A stretch of 64,000 nucleotides of DNA. Source: an uncultured delta proteobacterium (GTDB lineage: Bacteria > Desulfobacterota > RBG-13-43-22). The stretch's first letter is position 1; every line of letters begins with the position of its first letter. Both the position numbers and the translations under genes were made by a program. This document shows, in pieces, positions 24,938 to 34,941 of the stretch. The notes beneath the pieces are model-generated. The model was not told the origin of the DNA, did not search any database, and worked only from the letters and a program-made list of their open reading frames with translations. The stretch is from NCBI GenBank assembly GCA_963843145.1, contig CAWJJC010000020.1, positions 713,788 through 777,787 of the forward strand, read 5' to 3'.

Positions 24938-25372
24938 TTGCAGATTGAAACCAGCCGTTTTGGTACGATAGTTGTCAAAGAGGAGCAGATCTTCCACCTG
25001 CCGGAAGGGATCATCGGTTTTCCGGAGTGGACCCGCTATATCCTGATCAACCATAGAGAAGGGTCTCCCTTCCAGTGGTTTCAGTCCATAGAAAACCAGG
25101 ACTTGGCCTTCGTTTTGATGGACCCCCTGGACCTGGTTGCGGACTACGATATAGACCTATCTCCCGAAGATTCTCTCCTGCTGCAGATCGATCAACCGGT
25201 CGCGGAGATCACGGCCCTGGTGGTAGTGAATATCTCTAAACAACCGCCATCGGAAATCACGGCTAACCTCCTGGCCCCGGTGGTGATCAATTCCGGAAAA
25301 AAAATCGCCAAACAGATCATCCTCTATCAGAGCGACTATTCCGTCCGCCACCCGGTCCCCACAAAAAACTGA
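24938..25372 (+). CDS. fliW: Flagellar assembly factor FliW (CsrA antagonist)
   Basis: TSRFG, GIIGFP, PFQWFQS, TANLLAPVVIN, QIIL. Confidence 0.92.
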   Translation: MQIETSRFGTIVVKEEQIFHLPEGIIGFPEWTRYILINHREGSPFQWFQSIENQDLAFVLMDPLDLVADYDIDLSPEDSLLLQIDQPVAEITALVVVNISKQPPSEITANLLAPVVINSGKKIAKQIILYQSDYSVRHPVPTKN

Positions 25373-25447: not shown

Positions 25448-25762
25448 CTAGCTATTCAGTTCAACGAGAGACGCCTTCAACATCTTCCCGGCAAGTTCTT
25501 CACTGTTCACCTGGTAGGTTCCGGATTCCACTTTTTTCTTAAGGTCCGCCACTCTATCGGCTCGGGTATCCGGGGCCGAGAGAGCGAGCGCTTCTATCTT
25601 CTTAATCATCCTGAAGGAGGGGGATAAATCCACCCGGTCCCCAATTTGACTTTGTACCCTAGTTTCCGGATTGACCGTGCTCTGATCATTGGTGTTTACC
25701 TTGTTCTGCTGATTGACATACTGGAGGATCTGAGCCTTTTGGCCGATATCTTGAATTTTCAT
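25448..25762 (-). CDS. flgM: Anti-sigma28 factor FlgM
   Basis: DRVDLS, R.DRVA.LK..VESG.YQV...LA.KML. Confidence 0.9.
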   Translation of the reverse strand: MKIQDIGQKAQILQYVNQQNKVNTNDQSTVNPETRVQSQIGDRVDLSPSFRMIKKIEALALSAPDTRADRVADLKKKVESGTYQVNSEELAGKMLKASLVELNS

Positions 25763-26777: not shown

Positions 26778-27407
26778 TTATCCTTGCTTAAAGGCCATCC
26801 CGATCAGGGGATAGACCACCATTCCTGCTAAAACCGCCGCATCTTCGGCAATTAAATACCGGGCGATGCTGGCATCGAACAAAACGTTGCCGTCCGGTGG
26901 GAACTCGTCGTCTCCGGCCCAGAGGATCAGGCAGACCGGGATCCTGGGGAAAGCCTGAAAACAGATACAGACATCCCCTTCCTCTCTTTCGACCCCGCCC
27001 TGTTGAACCCCCAATTCGGCCAGGAGCCGAGGCCGGTGGCCGAAAGTCTTGACCAGGGGCTCTTTGGCCCGCTGGACAAAAGCCGAGTAATAGAACTCGC
27101 CTGAAGGGATCTCCCGGAAAGTGATCCATTGCCCGGCCAACGGGATCCCCGGGGCCTTTAGCAGGTAATGGAGGATCAAAACCTGCTCCTGCAGGGAAAG
27201 CTCTTTGGCCGGGTCCGGTCCCTGAACCTGGCCTTCCGGCCAGGCTATGGTAATCGTCTTATCCATAAACTGAAGCTTTAGGCGAGTCCCGTCCGGTCCC
27301 TGTTGGCAGGCTGCCCCGCTGAGGACCGCCGCCTGTTGGGGGTCCTGCTTGGCCCACTCCTCCCGGGCCAGTGCCAGGGCATTCTTATAATCGTCTATTC
27401 GGGACAT
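26778..27407 (-). CDS. DUF3786-like protein
   Basis: VLILHYLL, WITFREIPSG..Y..AF, FPRIP..LILW.GD.EFP....VLFD. Confidence 0.8.
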   Translation of the reverse strand: MSRIDDYKNALALAREEWAKQDPQQAAVLSGAACQQGPDGTRLKLQFMDKTITIAWPEGQVQGPDPAKELSLQEQVLILHYLLKAPGIPLAGQWITFREIPSGEFYYSAFVQRAKEPLVKTFGHRPRLLAELGVQQGGVEREEGDVCICFQAFPRIPVCLILWAGDDEFPPDGNVLFDASIARYLIAEDAAVLAGMVVYPLIGMAFKQG

Positions 27408-29734
27408 GAAGCGTCCTTTATCCGGCACAAGGTGCAGAGGGTCTTATCTTTCAAGTCAATAATCCGGTATCCCCTGGCGCAGATCTGGTCACGAATCCGG
27501 TCGGCCTCGGTGAACTCTTTGCGCTGCCGGGCCTGCTCCCGTTGCTCCAGCATATCCCGCACTTCTAAAGGAAGTTCCCGGTCCGGAAAATCAAAAATTT
27601 CCAATACGGTGTTGGTCTGCTTTAAGACCAAATCGATCTCCAGGAACTCTTCAGGGGTAATCCGCTTTTCAATGAATACCGGATTCAGGGCGCGGATGAG
27701 TTTGAAGAGGGCCGACAGGGCCGCCGCAATATTCAGATCGTCGTCCATGGCCCGCTTAAACCGGGTTTTGAAAAGATAAAGGGCCTCGCCGACCTCCGGA
27801 TGCTCTTCCTGCCCCGCTTGCCGGGAATAAAGTTTCTGGACGAATTCATCCAGGCGTTTTAATGTCTTCCGGGACGTCTCCAGGGTTTTAAGGGAAAAAT
27901 GAAGGGGTTTGCGGTAGTGAGTAGACAGCAGCCAGTACCGTACTTCCCGACCGCTGTAGCCCTGGTTCAAAAGGTCCCGTAAGGTGATCACATTCCCGCC
28001 GGCCGGGGAAATCTTTTTCCCTTCCACGTAAACCAGATCGCTGTGCAGCCAGTAGTTCACGAATTTCTTGCCGGTGGCCGCCTCGCTGATGGCGATTTCG
28101 TTTTCATGATGGGGGAAGACCAGATCCATCCCGCTGGTATGGATGTCAAAGGTTTCCCCCAAATATTTTAAGGCCATGGCCGAACATTCCACATGCCAGC
28201 CCGGACGCACATTCCCCCACTCGGTAACGAAATAGATCCCTTTCTTGAGTTCCGAAAGGTTGGTGCGCTTCAGCAAAGTGAAATCCCGGGGGTTGTCTTT
28301 TTCATATTCATCCAGGTCTACGGTTTTCCCAAGCTGGATTTTTTTTAAGTCAACCCGGGATAAGTGGCCATAAGGCTTAAAACGGGAGATATCAAAGTAA
28401 ACCGAGCGGAACTTTTCATAGGCATACCCTTTTTTCAAGAGTTCCCGGGACAGGGCGATCATGTCCTCCACGTGCTCACTGGCCTTAGGATAATGGGATG
28501 CCCGTTTAATCCGCAAGGTGTCGATATCGCTTAAAAACGCCTGGGTGAAATACCCGGTGAAGGCCTCCAGGGTTTGGTTGGCTTCCTCGGCTCCGCGTAT
28601 CGTCCGGTCATGAAGGTCGGTAATATTCATGACATGTTGGACCTCCAACCCCTTAAATTCCAGGTAGCGGCGCAGCAAATCGGCCATGACAAAGCGGCGG
28701 CAATTCCCCAGATGAATCAAAGCGCTGACTGTGGGACCACAGGAATAAATGGAAACCCGGTTTTCCTTGAGGGGGACAAAATTTTCCTTTTCCCGGCTCA
28801 GAGTGTTATAAAAAACCAGCCCGTTTTTTTCCTTTTCATCGAAGAGCGTGGTGCTCAGATAGCGTTCCCCGCCGTCCGGGCAGATGACCACAATCAGGCC
28901 TTTCTTGAGTTGCTGGGCCTTTTGGAGGGCTACAAATACAGCTCCTCCTGAGCTCATCCCCAGCAGCAGGCCTTCTTCCCTGGCCAGCTTCCGGACCGTT
29001 TCAAAGGCCTCTTCATCCTCCACGTTGACTACTTCGTCCAATATGCTCTTGTCATAGATACCGGGCTTGTATGACTCCTTCATATTTTTCAGGCCCTGGA
29101 TCTTATGACCCAAATAAGGCTCCACGCCGACTATTTTTATGTTCGGGTTATATTCCTTGAGCCGCTTGGTCAGGCCCATCAGGGTTCCGGTGGTCCCCAT
29201 AGTGGCCACCACCAGGGTCACCTTGCCCCCGGTCTGCTCCCAGATTTCCCGGCCGGTGCCGTGGTAGTGGGCCATGATGTTGTCCTGGTTATTAAACTGG
29301 TCCGGCAAGAAATAGCGTTCCGGGTTCTCCCGAGCCATTTGATAGACCTTTTCGATGGCCCCATCGGTGCCCAGGTGAGCCGGCGTCAGGAGGATCTTGG
29401 CCCCGTAGGCCCGGAGGATCTTTTGGCGTTCAATGCTGGCCGATTCGGGCATGGCCAGAAGCAGTGGATACCCCCTGACGGCAGCTACCAGGGCCAGACC
29501 GATTCCAGTGTTTCCCGAGGTGGCTTCAATTATGGTTTTATCCTTAGTCAAGGCGCCGCTTTTTTCCGCACCCTCCACCATGGACAAGGCGACGCGGTCC
29601 TTGATCGATCCGCCAGGATTAAAGGACTCGATCTTAGCCCAGACCGCCGCCTTTTTATTGAGATTAAGTCGATTCAATTTGATCAACGGGGTATGGCCGA
29701 TGAGGCTGGTTATGTCGGGAAAGGCGTGTTTCAT
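27395..29734 (-). CDS. cysS: Cysteine synthase (CysM-like) / cysteinyl-tRNA synthetase fusion
   Basis: N-terminal half: NPGGSIKDR (PLP Lys), EATSGNTG, GTTGT, PDGGERYLS. C-terminal half: YNTL, CGPT, HLGN, PGWHVECSAM, FPHHENE, HYRKPL, ADRIRD. Confidence 0.93.
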   Translation of the reverse strand: MKHAFPDITSLIGHTPLIKLNRLNLNKKAAVWAKIESFNPGGSIKDRVALSMVEGAEKSGALTKDKTIIEATSGNTGIGLALVAAVRGYPLLLAMPESASIERQKILRAYGAKILLTPAHLGTDGAIEKVYQMARENPERYFLPDQFNNQDNIMAHYHGTGREIWEQTGGKVTLVVATMGTTGTLMGLTKRLKEYNPNIKIVGVEPYLGHKIQGLKNMKESYKPGIYDKSILDEVVNVEDEEAFETVRKLAREEGLLLGMSSGGAVFVALQKAQQLKKGLIVVICPDGGERYLSTTLFDEKEKNGLVFYNTLSREKENFVPLKENRVSIYSCGPTVSALIHLGNCRRFVMADLLRRYLEFKGLEVQHVMNITDLHDRTIRGAEEANQTLEAFTGYFTQAFLSDIDTLRIKRASHYPKASEHVEDMIALSRELLKKGYAYEKFRSVYFDISRFKPYGHLSRVDLKKIQLGKTVDLDEYEKDNPRDFTLLKRTNLSELKKGIYFVTEWGNVRPGWHVECSAMALKYLGETFDIHTSGMDLVFPHHENEIAISEAATGKKFVNYWLHSDLVYVEGKKISPAGGNVITLRDLLNQGYSGREVRYWLLSTHYRKPLHFSLKTLETSRKTLKRLDEFVQKLYSRQAGQEEHPEVGEALYLFKTRFKRAMDDDLNIAAALSALFKLIRALNPVFIEKRITPEEFLEIDLVLKQTNTVLEIFDFPDRELPLEVRDMLEQREQARQRKEFTEADRIRDQICARGYRIIDLKDKTLCTLCRIKDASCPE

Positions 29735-29737
29735 GGG

Positions 29738-30085
29738 TTATCGCCGCCCAAATCCGGACGGCTTTCTCCTTTTAGGACGATTGATCTTTTCGAACAAGGC
29801 AACTTGCTCAACCAGAGAAAGTTTTACCCGAACCGGTTTCCGGCCGGCCCGGCAGAGGCGGCAGCGGTCCTGGGAACAACCTTGACAGTAATGGCAATCC
29901 GGGCATTTTTTTCGTTTCTTTCCGGTCGGATGACCGGCCGAGGGTCGGATCTCTTCAAAGGGTATTAATCGCTGGCTTTGGCCCGGTCCGGTTATTCCGC
30001 TTGTTTTTTCCCTTAGCGCGCTGCGCGCTGCGCTGAGCGTCTTTTTTTTAACGCCCGGGCTTTTTGTTTTTACCCCGCTGCTCAT
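29738..30085 (-). CDS. Small basic Cys-rich protein (CxxCxxCxxC-x4-CxxC)
   Basis: KKCPDCHYCQGCSQDRCRLCR; stop lies 3 nt before the fusion gene ATG; GAGGGG upstream of the start. Confidence 0.65.
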   Translation of the reverse strand: MSSGVKTKSPGVKKKTLSAARSALREKTSGITGPGQSQRLIPFEEIRPSAGHPTGKKRKKCPDCHYCQGCSQDRCRLCRAGRKPVRVKLSLVEQVALFEKINRPKRRKPSGFGRR

Positions 30086-30124: not shown

Positions 30125-31954
30125 CTATTCCACCGTTACGCTCTTAGCCAGGTTTCTGGGCTGATCCACATCCGTGCCCCGCAGCACGGCGACGTGGTAG
30201 GCCAGAAGCTGCAGTGGGATGGTGAAGAGGATCGGGGAAAGCGTCCAATGGATCTTAGGGACCCGCAGCAGGTCATCCGCTCCGATCCTGAACCCGGCCC
30301 CTTCCTCCTGATCGGTCAGGGCGATGATCTTCCCGCCCCGGGCCTTGACCTCCTGCAGGTTGCTTTGCACCTTTTCCAGGATCTCGTTTTCCGGCAACAA
30401 AAGAACCGTGGGCAGGTCCTCATCAATCAACGCAATGGGACCATGTTTCATCTCCCCGGCCGGATAGCCTTCGGCATGGATATAAGAAATTTCTTTGAGT
30501 TTTAAGGCCCCCTCCAGGGCGATGGGGTAATGAATCCCCCGTCCCAGAAAAAGAAAGTCCTGGGCCTGAAAGTACCTTTGGGCCACCGCCTGAATCAGCC
30601 CTTCTTTTTCCAGAATCTCCTCGACGCCGCGGGGCAGAAGCAACAGGTCCCGGGCGACCCGGAGGCGCTCTTCCGTTGAAACGCAACCCAGCTCCTGGCC
30701 GATATGCAGGCTCAGGAGCGTTAGGGCGACCAATTGGGTGGTAAAGGCCTTGGTGGAGGCCACCCCGATCTCCGGTCCGGCGTGCGTATAAATTACCCCG
30801 TCCGCTTCCCGGGCCAGGGTACTGCCCACCACGTTGCAGATGGCCAGGATCCGGGCGCCCTTGGCCCGTCCTTCCCGCATAGCGGCCAGGGTATCGGCGG
30901 TCTCGCCGGATTGGGAGATCAGAATAATCAGGGTCTGGGGATTGATGATCGGGTTCCGATAACGGTATTCGGAACCGTAATCCACCTCCACCGGGAGGCG
31001 GCAGTATTCCTCAATAAGAAACTTGGCCACCAGTCCGGCATGCCAGGAGGTCCCGCAGGCCACAATGACCACCCTGCTGATCTTCCGGAGTTCCCCGGCC
31101 TCCAGCCCGAACTCCGGCAGCGTCACCTGCCCGGTTTCCGGTGAAATCCTGCCTCGGAAAGTATCAATGATACATTGGGGTTGCTCAAAAATTTCCTTCT
31201 GCATGAAGTGCTTGAAGCCGGCCTTCTCGGCCATAACCGGATTCCAGGAAATCTTCTGAACCGGCTTTTCAATTTTTTCTTTTTTCCAGTTGAATATCGC
31301 GGGTTGAGGCAAGGTCAGGACGGCCAGGTCCCCATCTTCCAGGTAAATGACCCGGTCGGTATGATGCAAAAAAGCCAGGACATCGGAAGCTACGAAAAGC
31401 TCGCCTTCCCCAAGACCGATGATCAGCGGGCATTCTTTCCGCACGGCAATCATGGTCCGGGGGTCTTTTTGATGGAGGATCACCAGGGCATAGGACCCCT
31501 TAATATCCTCCAGTGCTCTCCGGACCGCCTGAACCAGATCCAGATCCCGGACGTATTTATCGATGAGATGCGCCACGATCTCCGAATCGGTTTCCGAAGA
31601 AAAGCGATGCCCTTCCCCAATGAGTTGATTTTTCAGCTCCAGATAGTTCTCAATGATCCCGTTGTGGACCACGGCGATTTGTCCGGACACATGGGGGTGG
31701 GCATTGGTTTCCGAGGGCCGTCCATGGGTAGCCCAGCGGGTATGACCGATACCGATTCGGCCGACCAGGGGATCACGGGCCAGGATCTCCCCCAACTTGT
31801 TTAATTTGCCCTCGCTGCGGCGAATGGCAAACCCTTCGTCCTGAATCACCGCAATCCCGGCCGAGTCATACCCCCGATATTCCAGGCGCTGCAACCCCTC
31901 ATAGATGATCCCCACCGGATCCTTAGGCCCCAAATACCCTATAATCCCACACAT
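30125..31954 (-). CDS. glmS: Glutamine-fructose-6-phosphate transaminase
   Basis: MCGIIG, LEYRGYDSAG, GHTRWATHG, SQSGETADT, PRNLAKSVTVE. Confidence 0.98.
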   Translation of the reverse strand: MCGIIGYLGPKDPVGIIYEGLQRLEYRGYDSAGIAVIQDEGFAIRRSEGKLNKLGEILARDPLVGRIGIGHTRWATHGRPSETNAHPHVSGQIAVVHNGIIENYLELKNQLIGEGHRFSSETDSEIVAHLIDKYVRDLDLVQAVRRALEDIKGSYALVILHQKDPRTMIAVRKECPLIIGLGEGELFVASDVLAFLHHTDRVIYLEDGDLAVLTLPQPAIFNWKKEKIEKPVQKISWNPVMAEKAGFKHFMQKEIFEQPQCIIDTFRGRISPETGQVTLPEFGLEAGELRKISRVVIVACGTSWHAGLVAKFLIEEYCRLPVEVDYGSEYRYRNPIINPQTLIILISQSGETADTLAAMREGRAKGARILAICNVVGSTLAREADGVIYTHAGPEIGVASTKAFTTQLVALTLLSLHIGQELGCVSTEERLRVARDLLLLPRGVEEILEKEGLIQAVAQRYFQAQDFLFLGRGIHYPIALEGALKLKEISYIHAEGYPAGEMKHGPIALIDEDLPTVLLLPENEILEKVQSNLQEVKARGGKIIALTDQEEGAGFRIGADDLLRVPKIHWTLSPILFTIPLQLLAYHVAVLRGTDVDQPRNLAKSVTVE

Positions 31955-32126: not shown

Positions 32127-33131
32127 TCATATCTTAATAACAGGAACGTCCGTTTTCCGAGCGGTTACCCTTCGATCTTTGATATGGGAAAAAGGAGGCA
32201 CGCTGACGCTCTCTTCCAGAACAGCATTTTCAAGGATTACCTGGGAAGACACCAGACAGCGTCTGCCAATGCGTGTTCGACCTGCGATAACCGTGAAGGG
32301 TCCAATGGTGGTGTCCGGGCCGATTTTAACGGTCTTTTCGATATAGGTATTTTCCGGATCCAATAAAGTGACCCCTTGTTTCATCCATTCCTCGTTGATT
32401 TGCCTTCTCAGGATCAGGCCGGCTCGGGCCAATTCCGTTCGATCATTGATCCCCAGCACTTCCTCGGATTGAGGATGGAGCAACACCGAAACCGACTGCC
32501 CGGATTCCCGGGCCAGTTGAATGACATCGGTCAAATAATATTCCCCCTGCCGGTTTTTTCGGGAGAGCTTAGGCAGGGCGGAAAAAAGAAATCCGGAGTC
32601 AAAGCAATAGATCCCGGCATTCACTTCCTGAATCAGACGTTCTTCCGGGGTGGCATCTTTTTCCTCAACGATTCGCTTTAGGTCGCCCTGGGGATCCCGG
32701 AGGATGCGACCGTAGCCCAGCGGCTGAAGTAAACGGGTGCTTAACAGCGTAACCGGGGATTTCTTCTTCCGGTGGGTTCGAATGATTTTTCCCAGGGTCT
32801 CCTTCTTGAGCAGAGGGACGTCTCCGGACAAGACCAGGATTATTCCGGGAAAGGAATTCAAAATCCTGGAGGTCTGCCGCACCGCGTGGCCGGTCCCCAA
32901 CTGGGGGTCCTGGGTGACGAAGGTCAAACCTGGACGGTCAAAGGCCTGCCGCACATTTTCCGCCTGATGGCCGATGACCACCACCGTTTTTTCGGGCCTC
33001 AGGGCGTTGGCCGCGTCCAAAACGTAGCCTAATAACGGCCGCCCCAACAAAGGATGGAGGACTTTGGCCCGGTCCGATTTCATCCGGGTCCCTTTTCCGG
33101 CCGCTAAAATGATAATCGCTAAGGAAGGCAT
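32127..33131 (-). CDS. glmU: GlmU-like uridylyltransferase with a shortened hexapeptide-repeat domain (334 aa)
   Basis: LAAGKGTRMKS..KVLH, QLGTGHA, GDVPL, GYGRI, EYYLTD, GINDR; only a few LbH turns; adjacent to glmS. Confidence 0.85.
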   Translation of the reverse strand: MPSLAIIILAAGKGTRMKSDRAKVLHPLLGRPLLGYVLDAANALRPEKTVVVIGHQAENVRQAFDRPGLTFVTQDPQLGTGHAVRQTSRILNSFPGIILVLSGDVPLLKKETLGKIIRTHRKKKSPVTLLSTRLLQPLGYGRILRDPQGDLKRIVEEKDATPEERLIQEVNAGIYCFDSGFLFSALPKLSRKNRQGEYYLTDVIQLARESGQSVSVLLHPQSEEVLGINDRTELARAGLILRRQINEEWMKQGVTLLDPENTYIEKTVKIGPDTTIGPFTVIAGRTRIGRRCLVSSQVILENAVLEESVSVPPFSHIKDRRVTARKTDVPVIKI

Positions 33132-33183: not shown

Positions 33184-34941
33184 TCAACTTACGGGCCGCA
33201 GGATGATAAACCCGGAAACAAATCTGGGGTCTGCTTTCCCGCCGGCCGGGATCCTTCCCAGTTCGGCCTCCAGTTTACTAATCAGGAACTCCAGCCACCA
33301 GCGCAGAACTTCGTCTTCAGCCGGCGATAACTCCGGGCCCTTATCCGTGAATAAGCGATAGCCGAGCTGAAAAACTTTTGACCCGGCTGGAGTAAGTCCG
33401 GCTTCCGGGTTTTGTTCGAAAAGCAAACCCTTCACCCGCTTCCAATCTTCAACGGTCAACGGTTGCAACACGGTCTGTCCGCGTAGCATCCGGTTAGCCA
33501 AGACGGTCAAACAAACAGCGCTTAGCGGGGGATCGGGTTGATAAAGAGAAACCGTGCCAAGGCGATTGATCTCCTCCGCGGCGACCCCCAGGCGCTGGGA
33601 GATCAATCGGCCCAGTTCGGCCAGTTTATCCAGCAACGCCCCGGTCTCTGCGAGTGCCCTCAAGTCCTGGAAAGGACGGTAATTCCCGCCTCCGGATTGA
33701 TCATAATACAGCGGCCTTTTAAAAAGAAGGCCCCGGATCGTTTCCTTGAAAGGCGAATCCAGTACCTCCTCCCGCAGGAGGATATCCCGGTACCATTCCC
33801 CGCTGCGAATAATGGCTTCCGCCCGGAATTTCAGTTCCAAACCCAGGCTGTGCCCGGTTTGAAAAACCCGGAGGAGGGGGATACTCCTCAGGATCTCTCC
33901 GGCCGTCCCCAAATCATCCCGACTTAAATGGCGCAACCCCAGATCCAGGAATTGGAAGGCCTTTTGGACCGATTGGTAGATCGGCGCCGGCTCATTCACC
34001 TCGGCGCCGTCGGCCACCAAAATCTGATTGGCCAGGTGCGCCAGTTCCCATTTGATTCGAGTGATCTCCCCTTCCTCCACCCCCCGGTTCAAGGCGGCGT
34101 AAAGGAACGTTCCCTCCCCGGCGGATTCGAGGTGGCTGGGAGGATAAAAAGAGGCTTCCGGCAGGGACCGTTCCGGAAATTTCTCCTTACGAACCTGATC
34201 GCTGGGAACATACTGGTAGATTTCCAGGGCCTCATAAAACTCGGGAAAACCCCGGTCGGCCAATCGTCCCCGGCGCCATTGAAGGGCGGTCTCTTCTTCT
34301 TCCAGCGGCAGGCGCAGGTGGACCCATTCCAACAAATTCTGATAATAGAGGGGGTCATCGGTACTCAGGAATTTCAGAAATCGGGTTATTAGAGGCGCAT
34401 TCTTTCCACTTAGAAATTGCACATAATAATAGCCGTCCAGAGTAAAGCCGTTATTATCCAGGGATTCGCCTATTTCATCGTCCAGACTTTCCATTTTGAC
34501 GACTCGGATCAGCTTCTGAAAAAGGGCCACGAGTAACTCGGAATCCACGGTGTCAAAAAGCTGTCTAAGTTTTTCCTCCCCGCAGGCCTCCAGCGTCTCC
34601 AGCCAAACGATGCTATTCTCCTGATTCAATTGATCTTTTTTCCAGAGGTCGAGGTCCAATAAATGGACGATTTGCTCCGGGGTGGCCAGGGAAATCAAAT
34701 CAACGCTCTCCTTAATTCCCAACCCTTTGACGGTGAGGAACAGATCGGTTTCCGGGATCTGAGCCACCAGCTCCCTCGGATCGGGGGAGTTCAAGATAGA
34801 TTCTAGCCGCTCCTCTAGGGGCAAAGAAAGAATGGCCCGGGTTTCTTCCGTTGAAGGAAAATAGCTCTGATCCACGAAAGGAAGTTCGGCGTCAAACCCG
34901 GCGGGTTCATCGTTAACTTGATTTTTTTCTTTTTCCGACAT
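33184..34941 (-). CDS. Conserved hypothetical protein (DUF6178-like)
   Basis: 585-aa ORF with LDLDLW..D, EE.ALQWR.GRL.D.GFP...EA..IY, LAN..LVAD. Confidence 0.7.
   Translation of the reverse strand: MSEKEKNQVNDEPAGFDAELPFVDQSYFPSTEETRAILSLPLEERLESILNSPDPRELVAQIPETDLFLTVKGLGIKESVDLISLATPEQIVHLLDLDLWKKDQLNQENSIVWLETLEACGEEKLRQLFDTVDSELLVALFQKLIRVVKMESLDDEIGESLDNNGFTLDGYYYVQFLSGKNAPLITRFLKFLSTDDPLYYQNLLEWVHLRLPLEEEETALQWRRGRLADRGFPEFYEALEIYQYVPSDQVRKEKFPERSLPEASFYPPSHLESAGEGTFLYAALNRGVEEGEITRIKWELAHLANQILVADGAEVNEPAPIYQSVQKAFQFLDLGLRHLSRDDLGTAGEILRSIPLLRVFQTGHSLGLELKFRAEAIIRSGEWYRDILLREEVLDSPFKETIRGLLFKRPLYYDQSGGGNYRPFQDLRALAETGALLDKLAELGRLISQRLGVAAEEINRLGTVSLYQPDPPLSAVCLTVLANRMLRGQTVLQPLTVEDWKRVKGLLFEQNPEAGLTPAGSKVFQLGYRLFTDKGPELSPAEDEVLRWWLEFLISKLEAELGRIPAGGKADPRFVSGFIILRPVS

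Follow-up and report, generated by a model that had tools for sequence, protein, structure and literature searches.

The fusion gene and its family

We analysed a 64,000-nucleotide stretch of DNA (the window) from an uncultured delta proteobacterium (GenBank assembly GCA_963843145.1, contig CAWJJC010000020.1, positions 713,788 to 777,787), which carries on its minus strand, at 27395..29734, a gene joining a cysteine synthase to a module resembling cysteinyl-tRNA synthetase (CysRS). The gene starts with ATG and encodes 779 aa with no internal stops. A first-pass annotation had described one uninterrupted reading frame containing a pyridoxal phosphate (PLP)-dependent cysteine synthase and a full CysRS, and this description was borne out by the open reading frame (ORF) listing and by Pfam and NCBIfam domain searches. 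Pfam placed PALP at residues 8-287 (2.8e-73), followed by tRNA-synt_1e (PF01406) at residues 319-621 (6.5e-96), DALR_2, and CysS_C (PF23493) at residues 719-758 (26.2 bits against a cut-off of 23). The protein scored above the cut-offs of the NCBIfam models cysKM (TIGR01136; 385.2 bits, cut-off 344.15) and, over residues 307-763, cysS (TIGR00435; 417.6 bits, cut-off 340). Its synthase part fell just under the cut-off of the CysM equivalog model (375 against 394), and the fusion is not a member of the MshC family (TIGR03447; 180.2 bits against 485.1).

The CysM-type PLP cysteine synthase domain spans residues 8-298 (28841..29713, on the minus strand like all features of the gene given here), as delimited by PALP, cysKM and alignment to E. 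coli CysM (2bhs), and its translation includes the PLP lysine motif SIKDR (29594-29608) and the asparagine (substrate) loop TSGNTG (29504-29521). A poorly conserved interdomain linker of about residues 299-306 (28817..28840; mean top-residue frequency 0.48) leads into the CysRS-like catalytic domain, which comprises Rossmann and CP parts and was assigned by tRNA-synt_1e and Foldseek (residues 319-621, 27872..28780). Here alignment and translation located HLGN at the HIGH position (28703-28714) and KISPA at the KMSKS position (28001-28015). The first zinc/cysteine ligand motif, CGPT, lies at 28730-28741, and the second half of the zinc/cysteine pocket at 28097..28198, with WHVEC (28184-28198), HTSG (28130-28141) and HHENE (28097-28111). 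A CP-domain loop conserved across fusions, QLGKTVDLDEYEKDNPRDFTLLKR, occupies residues 467-490 (28265..28336), and the C-terminal anticodon-binding domain recognized by CysS_C occupies residues 719-758 (27461..27580).

A search of protein collections recovered at least 120 clusters of proteins of 759-795 aa that contain both domains, at 57-100% identity. Where their sources name these clusters, they are called 'cysteine--tRNA ligase' and come from Deltaproteobacteria, Desulfobacterales or Desulfofervidaceae. Named records bearing the fusion include Desulfobulbus, Desulfopila, Desulforapulum autotrophicum, Desulfatibacillum and Thermodesulfobacteriota, with further records from Desulfovibrionaceae, Desulfocurvus and one metagenome-assembled genome labelled Polyangiaceae. 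We also surveyed 401 genomes sampled across the window's phylum, scoring as carriers those with a full-length match at E <= 1e-140. The fusion was present in 159 of these genomes, in 97 of 254 genera and in 140 of 339 high-quality genomes, and its presence by taxonomic family was nearly all-or-none. The junction between the domains lies near 28834 and is spanned by one RNA-library contig of a relative about 91% identical, gapless over 28599-29917, which is weak evidence in that such a library can hold DNA. Because open frames of about 760-800 aa occur in the 159 carriers and in the protein clusters, and a contig spans the junction, the fusion is a real gene and no assembly artefact. Stretches that this contig leaves uncovered carry no information. 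When sequencing runs were searched with sampled words of the stretch, no single run contained as many as half of them, and the small shares obtained are no evidence of habitat. In two genomes of one genus the fusion match contains one in-frame TAA (G366:C18:9192-11474 and G040:C34:173082-175364), and each may be a broken copy or a split gene.

The window's genome (5.35 Mb in 32 contigs) encodes a canonical CysRS of 492 aa on contig C21, with HIGH, KMSKS, DDKII, DFALWK and HGGG, and a separate CysK on contig C27. The fusion is therefore a paralogue of both standalone cysS and cysK, and not the housekeeping enzyme. The first-pass annotation had proposed to look for a second, canonical cysS, and its presence favours repurposing of the fused copy. 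Standalone CysRS accompanied the fusion in 154 of the 159 carriers. The five in which none was found (G004, G008, G087, G158 and G362; completeness 66, 79, 62, 95 and 97%) are all fragmented assemblies, and their same-family relatives have both genes. Initial PF01406 counts scored five candidates per genome; four genomes with one match in that count (G041, G042, G080 and G319) had both genes after full scoring. Aragorn identified one tRNA-Cys(GCA) and one tRNA-Sec gene in the window's genome, and the candidate explanation of a second tRNA-Cys dedicated to the fusion was rejected, as only one tRNA-Cys gene is present. The tRNA-Sec(TCA) gene lies at G000 C28:246093-246189, and selenocysteine use in this organism is probable.

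The first-pass annotation had called for a phylogeny and motif survey of fusion homologues, and these gave a single clan and a family uniformly devoid of KMSKS. In the tree, all 40 fusion CysRS modules formed one clan, apart from type-1 CysRS, from a second ('type-2') standalone CysRS and from CysRS lacking the anticodon domain (support 0.99-1.0). Five degenerate modules fell inside the fusion clan on branches of length 1.6-2.7, where the median is 0.80. Judged from these sequences, the fusion is an old, widespread family. Possible fusions outside the phylum were rejected. A record labelled Candidatus Saccharibacteria (L181, 32% identity) consists of two adjacent ORFs, cysK then type-2 cysS with KMSKS, and two further records (L155 and L166) are ordinary synthases. 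At L181:2157-4495 only a few bases separate the cysK-type gene from the type-2 cysS gene after it (HVGN, KMSKS), and a gene order of this kind could be the origin of the fusion.

We found no paper describing a cysteine synthase-CysRS fusion, although supplementary domain-architecture tables, which could list one, lay outside the search. The remark in the first-pass annotation that such fusions had been noted in Desulfobacterota could not be confirmed in the literature; the Desulfobacterales oddity that a review describes is CysRS*, which is unfused (PMC9437257). CysRS* is an active enzyme without an anticodon domain that places cysteine on a Sec-like tRNA and is coupled to SelC*/SelB* (Mukai et al. 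2017b, via PMC9437257), and reviews give only CysRS* and MshC as CysRS paralogues (PMC9437257). CysRS* resembles the fusion in being a non-canonical CysRS paralogue of the same phylum (some Desulfobacterales) that coexists with the normal enzyme. However, the fusion has an anticodon domain and a CysM part and lacks KMSKS, and its neighbours are a DUF3786 gene, a cysteine-rich ORF and glmS. A probable CysRS* was detected at L094:1108-2649 (plus strand) in genome G028; it has HLGH and KMSKS and no CysS_C, it fits the published description by protein features (PMC9437257), and it lies outside the fusion clan in the tree. A third CysRS paralogue, of 764 aa, lies at L095:310-2601 (minus strand) in genome G024 and combines a type-2-like catalytic domain (HLGN, KMAKS) with a family-2 glycosyltransferase domain. 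Three PF01406 matches were present in all 7 sampled genomes of the taxonomic family of G024.

Motifs, constraint and predicted structure

Every motif quoted in the first-pass annotation was found in its place, both in the translation and when the protein was aligned with the canonical CysRS of the same genome; that enzyme and the CysRS part of the fusion are 36% identical. SIKDR, TSGNTG, CGPT, WHVEC and HHENE are kept, and the zinc/cysteine pocket (C28, C209, H234 and E238 in E. coli numbering) is present in the window's protein. Relative to the canonical enzyme, KMSKS is replaced by KISPA, DDKII by HDRTI, DFALWK by DFTLLK and HGGG by HTSG; the additional replacement of HIGH by HLGN was absent from the first-pass annotation. 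We then counted motifs in 120 cluster representatives of the fusion family. KMSKS was found in none (0/120). The first three residues of the loop, K-M-S, were common among representatives, and the position of its second lysine held Arg in 50/120, Glu in 44/120 and Lys in 1/120; whole groups of representatives carried KVDEQ or KPSRF instead. The fourth position of HIGH was His in 3/120 and the first was His in 104/120. The zinc ligands Cys/Cys/His were present in 120/120 and the ligand Glu in 91/120, PLP motifs including SIKDR and TSGNTG were present in 120/120, and HTSG was conserved in fusions where canonical enzymes have HGGG.

We considered HLGN as a sign of decay and set it aside as telling little by itself, since the type-2 CysRS of the phylum (L073, L074, L076, L096 and L097) natively have HIGN, together with KMAKS or KMSKS. 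This form is the only standalone CysRS in three genomes: G264 (L074), G145 (L073) and G390 (L076). The type-2 enzymes of these genomes have HIGN, an insertion after NITDVGH, and KMAKS, and their PF01406 matches (about 1e-90 to 1e-96) are no better than those of the fusions. In contrast to HLGN, the KMSKS loop is a mark of decay.

We next asked where selection acts, measuring conservation as the mean top-residue frequency in non-redundant sets of 16 fusions and 17 canonical CysRS. The regions that are top-conserved in canonical CysRS were markedly less conserved in the fusion module: the KMSKS loop (0.49 in fusions, 0.91 in canonical enzymes), the N-terminal Rossmann half (0.57, 0.76) and the C-terminal Rossmann half (0.67, 0.86). 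Values for the CP domain (0.70, 0.73), the stem-contact fold (0.56, 0.61), the helical domain (0.49, 0.45) and the C-terminal domain (0.53, 0.61) lay closer together. The best conserved region of the fusion was its CysM part (0.76). Invariant columns were also defined on 31 canonical enzymes and scored for retention in all 5 of the most divergent fusions. These kept 0/8 such columns in the KMSKS loop, 4/23 in the N-terminal and 4/28 in the C-terminal Rossmann half, 13/30 in the CP domain and 3/3 in the C-terminal domain, and the 3/3 C-terminal columns were kept across 40/40 fusions. Within the window's genus, the CysRS-like part has a dN/dS of 0.063 and the CysM part one of 0.070; the value is 0.039 in the CP domain and 0.22 in the 25 codons around KMSKS. 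These values indicate that the CysRS-like part is under purifying selection and that constraint has moved off the catalytic core of the module. Because of this pattern of conservation, column retention and dN/dS, the module reads as functional, yet not constrained like a synthetase active site.

This shift is most advanced in a set of degenerate lineages. In five genomes of three families (f41, f42 and f66), the PF01406 score of the fusion drops to E 1e-26 to 1e-56, and a canonical CysRS (1e-106 to 1e-143) is present elsewhere in each genome. In the fusions of these families and of Desulfovibrionales-labelled records, both zinc cysteines, HIGH and KMSKS are gone. What remains are the CysM motifs (PALP about 1e-71), AYEKLRSVYF, the CP loop GKTVDL..Y.K.NP.DFTLLKR, WGNVRP, the stem-contact motif R.W..S..YRKPL and the C-terminal R..AR..K.F..AD.LR. 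Their anticodon domain, at 22-25 bits, is still seen by Pfam in two of them (L084 and L087). Since some lineages have lost HIGH, KMSKS and both zinc cysteines yet keep the fusion, the function that the C-terminal modules of all lineages have in common cannot, on the sequence evidence, be charging of tRNA or adenylation of cysteine. The series from a retained zinc pocket, as in the window, to the loss of all catalytic residues in the Desulfovibrionales-labelled records amounts to a natural experiment, which shows the parts that the shared function needs.

AlphaFold2 prediction with 47 aligned fusions gave a mean pLDDT of 85.6 and a pTM of 0.68, with pLDDT below 50 at the linker (residues 293-302) and in the CP loop (residues 467-482). 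Eight residues in or next to this loop (G469, D473, Y477, K479, P482, D484, F485 and K489) are invariant in the 47 diverse fusions, including those without catalytic residues. The corresponding residues of canonical CysRS (K175, P178, D180, F181 and K185) are equally invariant, and when the canonical enzyme was modelled (pLDDT 89.3, pTM 0.87), no part of its CP domain scored lower than the homologous loop (64-73). Because its key residues are invariant in ordinary CysRS and the loop is likewise of low confidence in the canonical model, it looks like a retained canonical element and not a new interface. Foldseek matched the CysRS half to 8qhp and 1u0b (TM 0.80-0.93 on target) and the synthase half to O-acetylserine sulfhydrylases, of the OASS fold (TM about 0.9 on target); no solved structure matched by sequence or Foldseek had both domains in one chain. 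A fixed packing of the two domains was dropped as an interpretation in view of the pTM of 0.68 and the low-confidence linker. Compared with canonical CysRS (E. coli 1li5/1u0b), the module shares the fold, the zinc ligands, the CP loop, the stem-contact motif and the anticodon domain, but it lacks KMSKS, has an altered ATP site (HTSG, HDRTI) and a leucine for W184, is fused to CysM and belongs to a separate clan.

Cysteine synthesis in carriers and the gene neighbourhood

The synthase domain aligned with E. coli CysM (2bhs) over 289 residues with no gaps (2.4e-79), and it has the short CysM-type loop, in which K216 stands at the position of R210. The PLP lysine and the asparagine loop are kept, and the fusion differs from the E. 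coli enzyme by the addition of a C-terminal CysRS-like module of 480 aa. The asparagine loop TSGNTG and Q146 bind the free alpha-carboxylate of the substrate. Because both are invariant, the motif in the 120 representatives and Q146 in the 47 diverse fusions, they point to a free amino acid as the substrate. M. tuberculosis CysM was not among the best 60 solved-structure matches to the fusion.

To place this enzyme in its pathway, we counted CysK/M-family matches (E <= 1e-70) and CysE-like matches (E <= 1e-30) in the 159 carriers. One CysK/M-family match was found in 77/159 carriers, two or more in 81/159, and none in one (G205), in which the gene runs off the contig end. In 5/5 closed genomes from five families, the single match was the fusion itself. 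A CysE-like match was absent in 74/77 fusion-only genomes and present in 75/81 carriers with an extra CysK, and the five closed fusion-only genomes had no CysE at E <= 1e-10. By these counts CysE, the classical feedback point, is missing where the fusion is the sole cysteine synthase. The serine donor of the fusion is accordingly, to judge from the sole-synthase carriers, probably not O-acetylserine made by CysE. The first-pass annotation had missed both that about half of the carriers have no cysteine synthase other than the fusion and that this goes with the absence of CysE. The window's genome belongs to the other group, having CysK and two CysE-like genes, which score 173 and 160 bits where the cut-off is 210.65. 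O-phosphoserine sulfhydrylases, such as M. tuberculosis CysM and Aeropyrum pernix OPSS, make cysteine without CysE. The fusion resembles them in being the sole CysK/M homologue of many genomes without a CysE-like gene, and it differs in its synthetase module; its use of O-phosphoserine is conjectural. A tRNA-dependent cysteine route through SepRS and SepCysS was rejected, as SepRS was found neither in the window's genome (best TIGR00470 match 24.7 bits, cut-off 380.65) nor in the five closed carrier genomes (19-30 bits).

The genes around the fusion gave no further clue. Overlapping the 3' end of the fusion by 34 nt is a DUF3786 gene with a GTG start (26778..27428, minus strand; PF12654, 4.9e-56), an overlap which suggests coupled translation. 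Upstream, a small cysteine-rich ORF of 115 aa (29738..30085, minus strand), with CPDCHYCQGC...CRLC and a basic tail and with no Pfam match, ends 3 nt before the fusion ATG. Beyond it in the upstream direction, on the same strand, come glmS (30125-31954), a glmU-like gene (32127-33131) and a gene for a DUF6178 protein (33184-34941). Downstream of the fusion lie genes for the flagellar regulators FliW (24938-25372, plus strand) and FlgM (25448-25762, minus strand). By tblastn, DUF3786, the small ORF and glmS flank the fusion in 13/13 loci of the window's own family (f1), where the C-terminal half of the small ORF is conserved (46-69% identity), and in 0/27 loci of other families. Clustering of the neighbours at 20 of those other loci gave no common partner. 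Gene context was therefore dropped as a functional clue, the arrangement being limited to the window's own taxonomic family.

A candidate pseudo-synthetase sensor and its rivals

Starting from what the sequences show, namely the architecture, the paralogy, how constraint is distributed across the family and how the fusion co-occurs with CysRS, CysK and CysE, we favour the interpretation, at a probability of about 0.45, that the fusion makes cysteine independently of CysE and carries a pseudo-synthetase module, comparable to HisZ or GCN2, by which cysteine and/or tRNA-Cys is sensed. We arrive at this model because the parts that hold tRNA in a genuine CysRS are kept everywhere, the cysteine pocket is kept in most lineages, and CysE is often absent. 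The N-terminal part would be a catalytically competent CysM-type PLP cysteine synthase that, across the family, works without O-acetylserine made by CysE; the simplest guess at its substrates is O-phosphoserine and sulfide. The C-terminal part would be a CysRS paralogue that is no longer the tRNA-charging enzyme of the cell, with KMSKS gone and the ATP site altered. The zinc pocket for the cysteine thiolate is retained in the window's protein, and the elements that hold tRNA-Cys in a genuine CysRS, namely CP loop, stem-contact motif and anticodon domain, are retained in every lineage. As in a regulatory pseudo-synthetase of the HisZ kind, the adenylation motifs are lost and the ligand-binding parts are kept under selection. 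Such a dead module may signal to the attached synthase that cysteine is sufficient, by way of free cysteine bound in the zinc pocket, of tRNA-Cys or of both, much as HisZ does for HisG and the HisRS-like domain of GCN2 for its kinase.

GCN2 is eukaryotic, and its HisRS-like domain binds uncharged tRNA as a starvation signal. The likeness lies in a catalytically dead synthetase domain fused to an effector enzyme, with the putatively tRNA-binding parts of the fusion kept in every lineage. In GCN2, however, the effector is a kinase and many tRNAs are involved, whereas the fusion has a metabolic effector and a module derived from CysRS. HisZ lacks an anticodon domain, unlike the fusion module, which keeps one. 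HisZ is otherwise described as a HisRS paralogue without adenylation activity that is tied to the ATP-phosphoribosyltransferase HisG and mediates feedback by histidine (PMC9437257). The shared feature is a synthetase paralogue bound to a biosynthetic enzyme of the same amino acid, the fusion having kept the zinc pocket and lost KMSKS; regulation is carried over by analogy. HisZ is a separate subunit acting at the first step of its pathway, whereas the CysRS-like module is fused and its partner performs the last step. A more specific form of the sensing model, in which the dead module directly reads the charging state of tRNA-Cys and uncharged tRNA-Cys, alone or with an empty zinc/cysteine pocket, switches the synthase on, is on present evidence doubtful. 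If true, cysteine output would be set by translation demand in lineages without the CysE feedback step. Bacteria would then have a purely metabolic equivalent of GCN2, and tRNA would control amino-acid synthesis in a novel way.

Several observations weigh against the sensing model. The window's protein keeps the whole zinc pocket, its HLGN matches the native HIGN of apparently working type-2 CysRS, and 50/120 relatives have Arg at the position of the second KMSKS lysine. Some active class I synthetases lack this lysine. The E. coli CysRS mutants K266A and K269A, according to a review, still sustained protein synthesis in a cell-free system (PMC10655014). Because of these tolerances, together with the retained pocket and HLGN, residual aminoacylation is possible. 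Conservation of the CP loop and C-terminal domain could also serve folding or another partner instead of tRNA. The AlphaFold2 model (pTM 0.68) showed no sign of a fixed interface for signal transfer, and no operon partner is conserved outside one taxonomic family. Finally, related genomes are not independent, so that fewer evolutionary events lie behind the CysE and CysK data than the counts suggest, and the CysE, CysK and fusion counts were cross-tabulated by hand from separate tables.

These same points feed the main alternative, a bifunctional enzyme, in which cysteine produced by the CysM part is still adenylated and loaded onto tRNA-Cys by the CysRS part, as a channelling device or as a second, specialised and perhaps weak CysRS. 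The score above the cysS cut-off (417.6 against 340), the Cys/Cys/His zinc ligands in all close representatives, the resemblance of HLGN to HIGN, the common K-M-S start of the loop with its frequent Arg, the mutants reported to support cell-free translation (PMC10655014) and the retained tRNA-binding parts are all as this alternative would have them. We nevertheless think it unlikely, given that a standalone CysRS coexists in nearly all carriers, that conservation within the module is lowest in the KMSKS loop, which takes unrelated forms such as KVDEQ and KPSRF, that HTSG is conserved in place of HGGG, and that the fusion persists in lineages without HIGH, KMSKS and both zinc cysteines. The first-pass annotation had offered the channelling of freshly synthesised cysteine onto tRNA, or a repurposed CysRS acting as a cysteine/tRNA sensor or as a Cys-versus-Sec filter. 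Channelling through catalysis by the fusion itself is weakened by the standalone CysRS and the loss of KMSKS, and retains the zinc pocket and HLGN of the window's protein in its favour. Of the repurposing proposals, the sensor is favoured by the standalone CysRS, the absence of KMSKS and the tRNA-binding parts kept without catalysis, and we found nothing in support of the filter. Somewhat less probable again is a scaffold or adaptor, in which the dead synthetase and its CP loop dock the synthase onto a partner other than tRNA (the real CysRS, a sulfur carrier or another protein), or in which sulfide or persulfide is handled at the zinc site on behalf of the PLP site. In its favour, conservation in the module peaks in a stretch predicted to be flexible (residues 467-490), as binding loops typically are, the top structural hit, 8qhp, bears the title of a CysRS homodimer, and CysRS has been tied to persulfide chemistry via PLP at the KIIK and KMSK lysines (PMC10655014). 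Yet the loop residues are invariant in ordinary CysRS, where the loop is also of low confidence, the persulfide-synthesis lysines are lost from the fusion (HDRTI, KISPA), the anticodon domain is retained, and no conserved neighbour gene indicates a partner.

The juxtaposition of tRNA-binding parts with a PLP beta-replacement enzyme, in a family half of whose carriers lack CysE and any other cysteine synthase, could also suggest chemistry on tRNA, with the dead CysRS holding aminoacyl-tRNA-Cys for a PLP domain that acts on the esterified amino acid in the manner of SepCysS, or that makes persulfide or selenocysteine on tRNA. We consider this improbable: SepRS was not found in the genomes searched, the window's genome has only one tRNA-Cys gene, the asparagine loop and Q146 that bind a free alpha-carboxylate are invariant, carriers keep a normal CysRS (154/159), which needs free cysteine, and the pocket for the aminoacyl end has decayed in divergent lineages. 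Least credible of all is a ligase like MshC, a known CysRS paralogue with such chemistry (PMC2922099, PMC9437257), in which the CysRS-like part, fed by the synthase, would join cysteine to a small-molecule amine to give a low-molecular-weight thiol. A separate CysRS-glycosyltransferase fusion does exist in the phylum, but the chemistry needs adenylation of cysteine and KMSKS is absent in 120/120, the match to the MshC model, at 180 bits, falls short of its cut-off of 485, the retained anticodon domain would be useless to such a ligase, and conserved biosynthetic neighbours are lacking.

The sensing model thus remains our preferred account, and the findings bear on how these organisms are read. 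The label 'cysteine--tRNA ligase' is probably wrong on function for a family carried by about 40% of the genomes sampled from a major phylum that comprises sulfate reducers and related bacteria, and metabolic models that seek CysE and CysK will miss cysteine synthesis in about half of the carriers. With the putative sensor and its target in one chain, the idea is easily tested with one purified protein. If the module does sense cysteine or tRNA-Cys, HisZ and GCN2 would be joined by a third clear example of a relic synthetase that became a regulator, here fused to its target.

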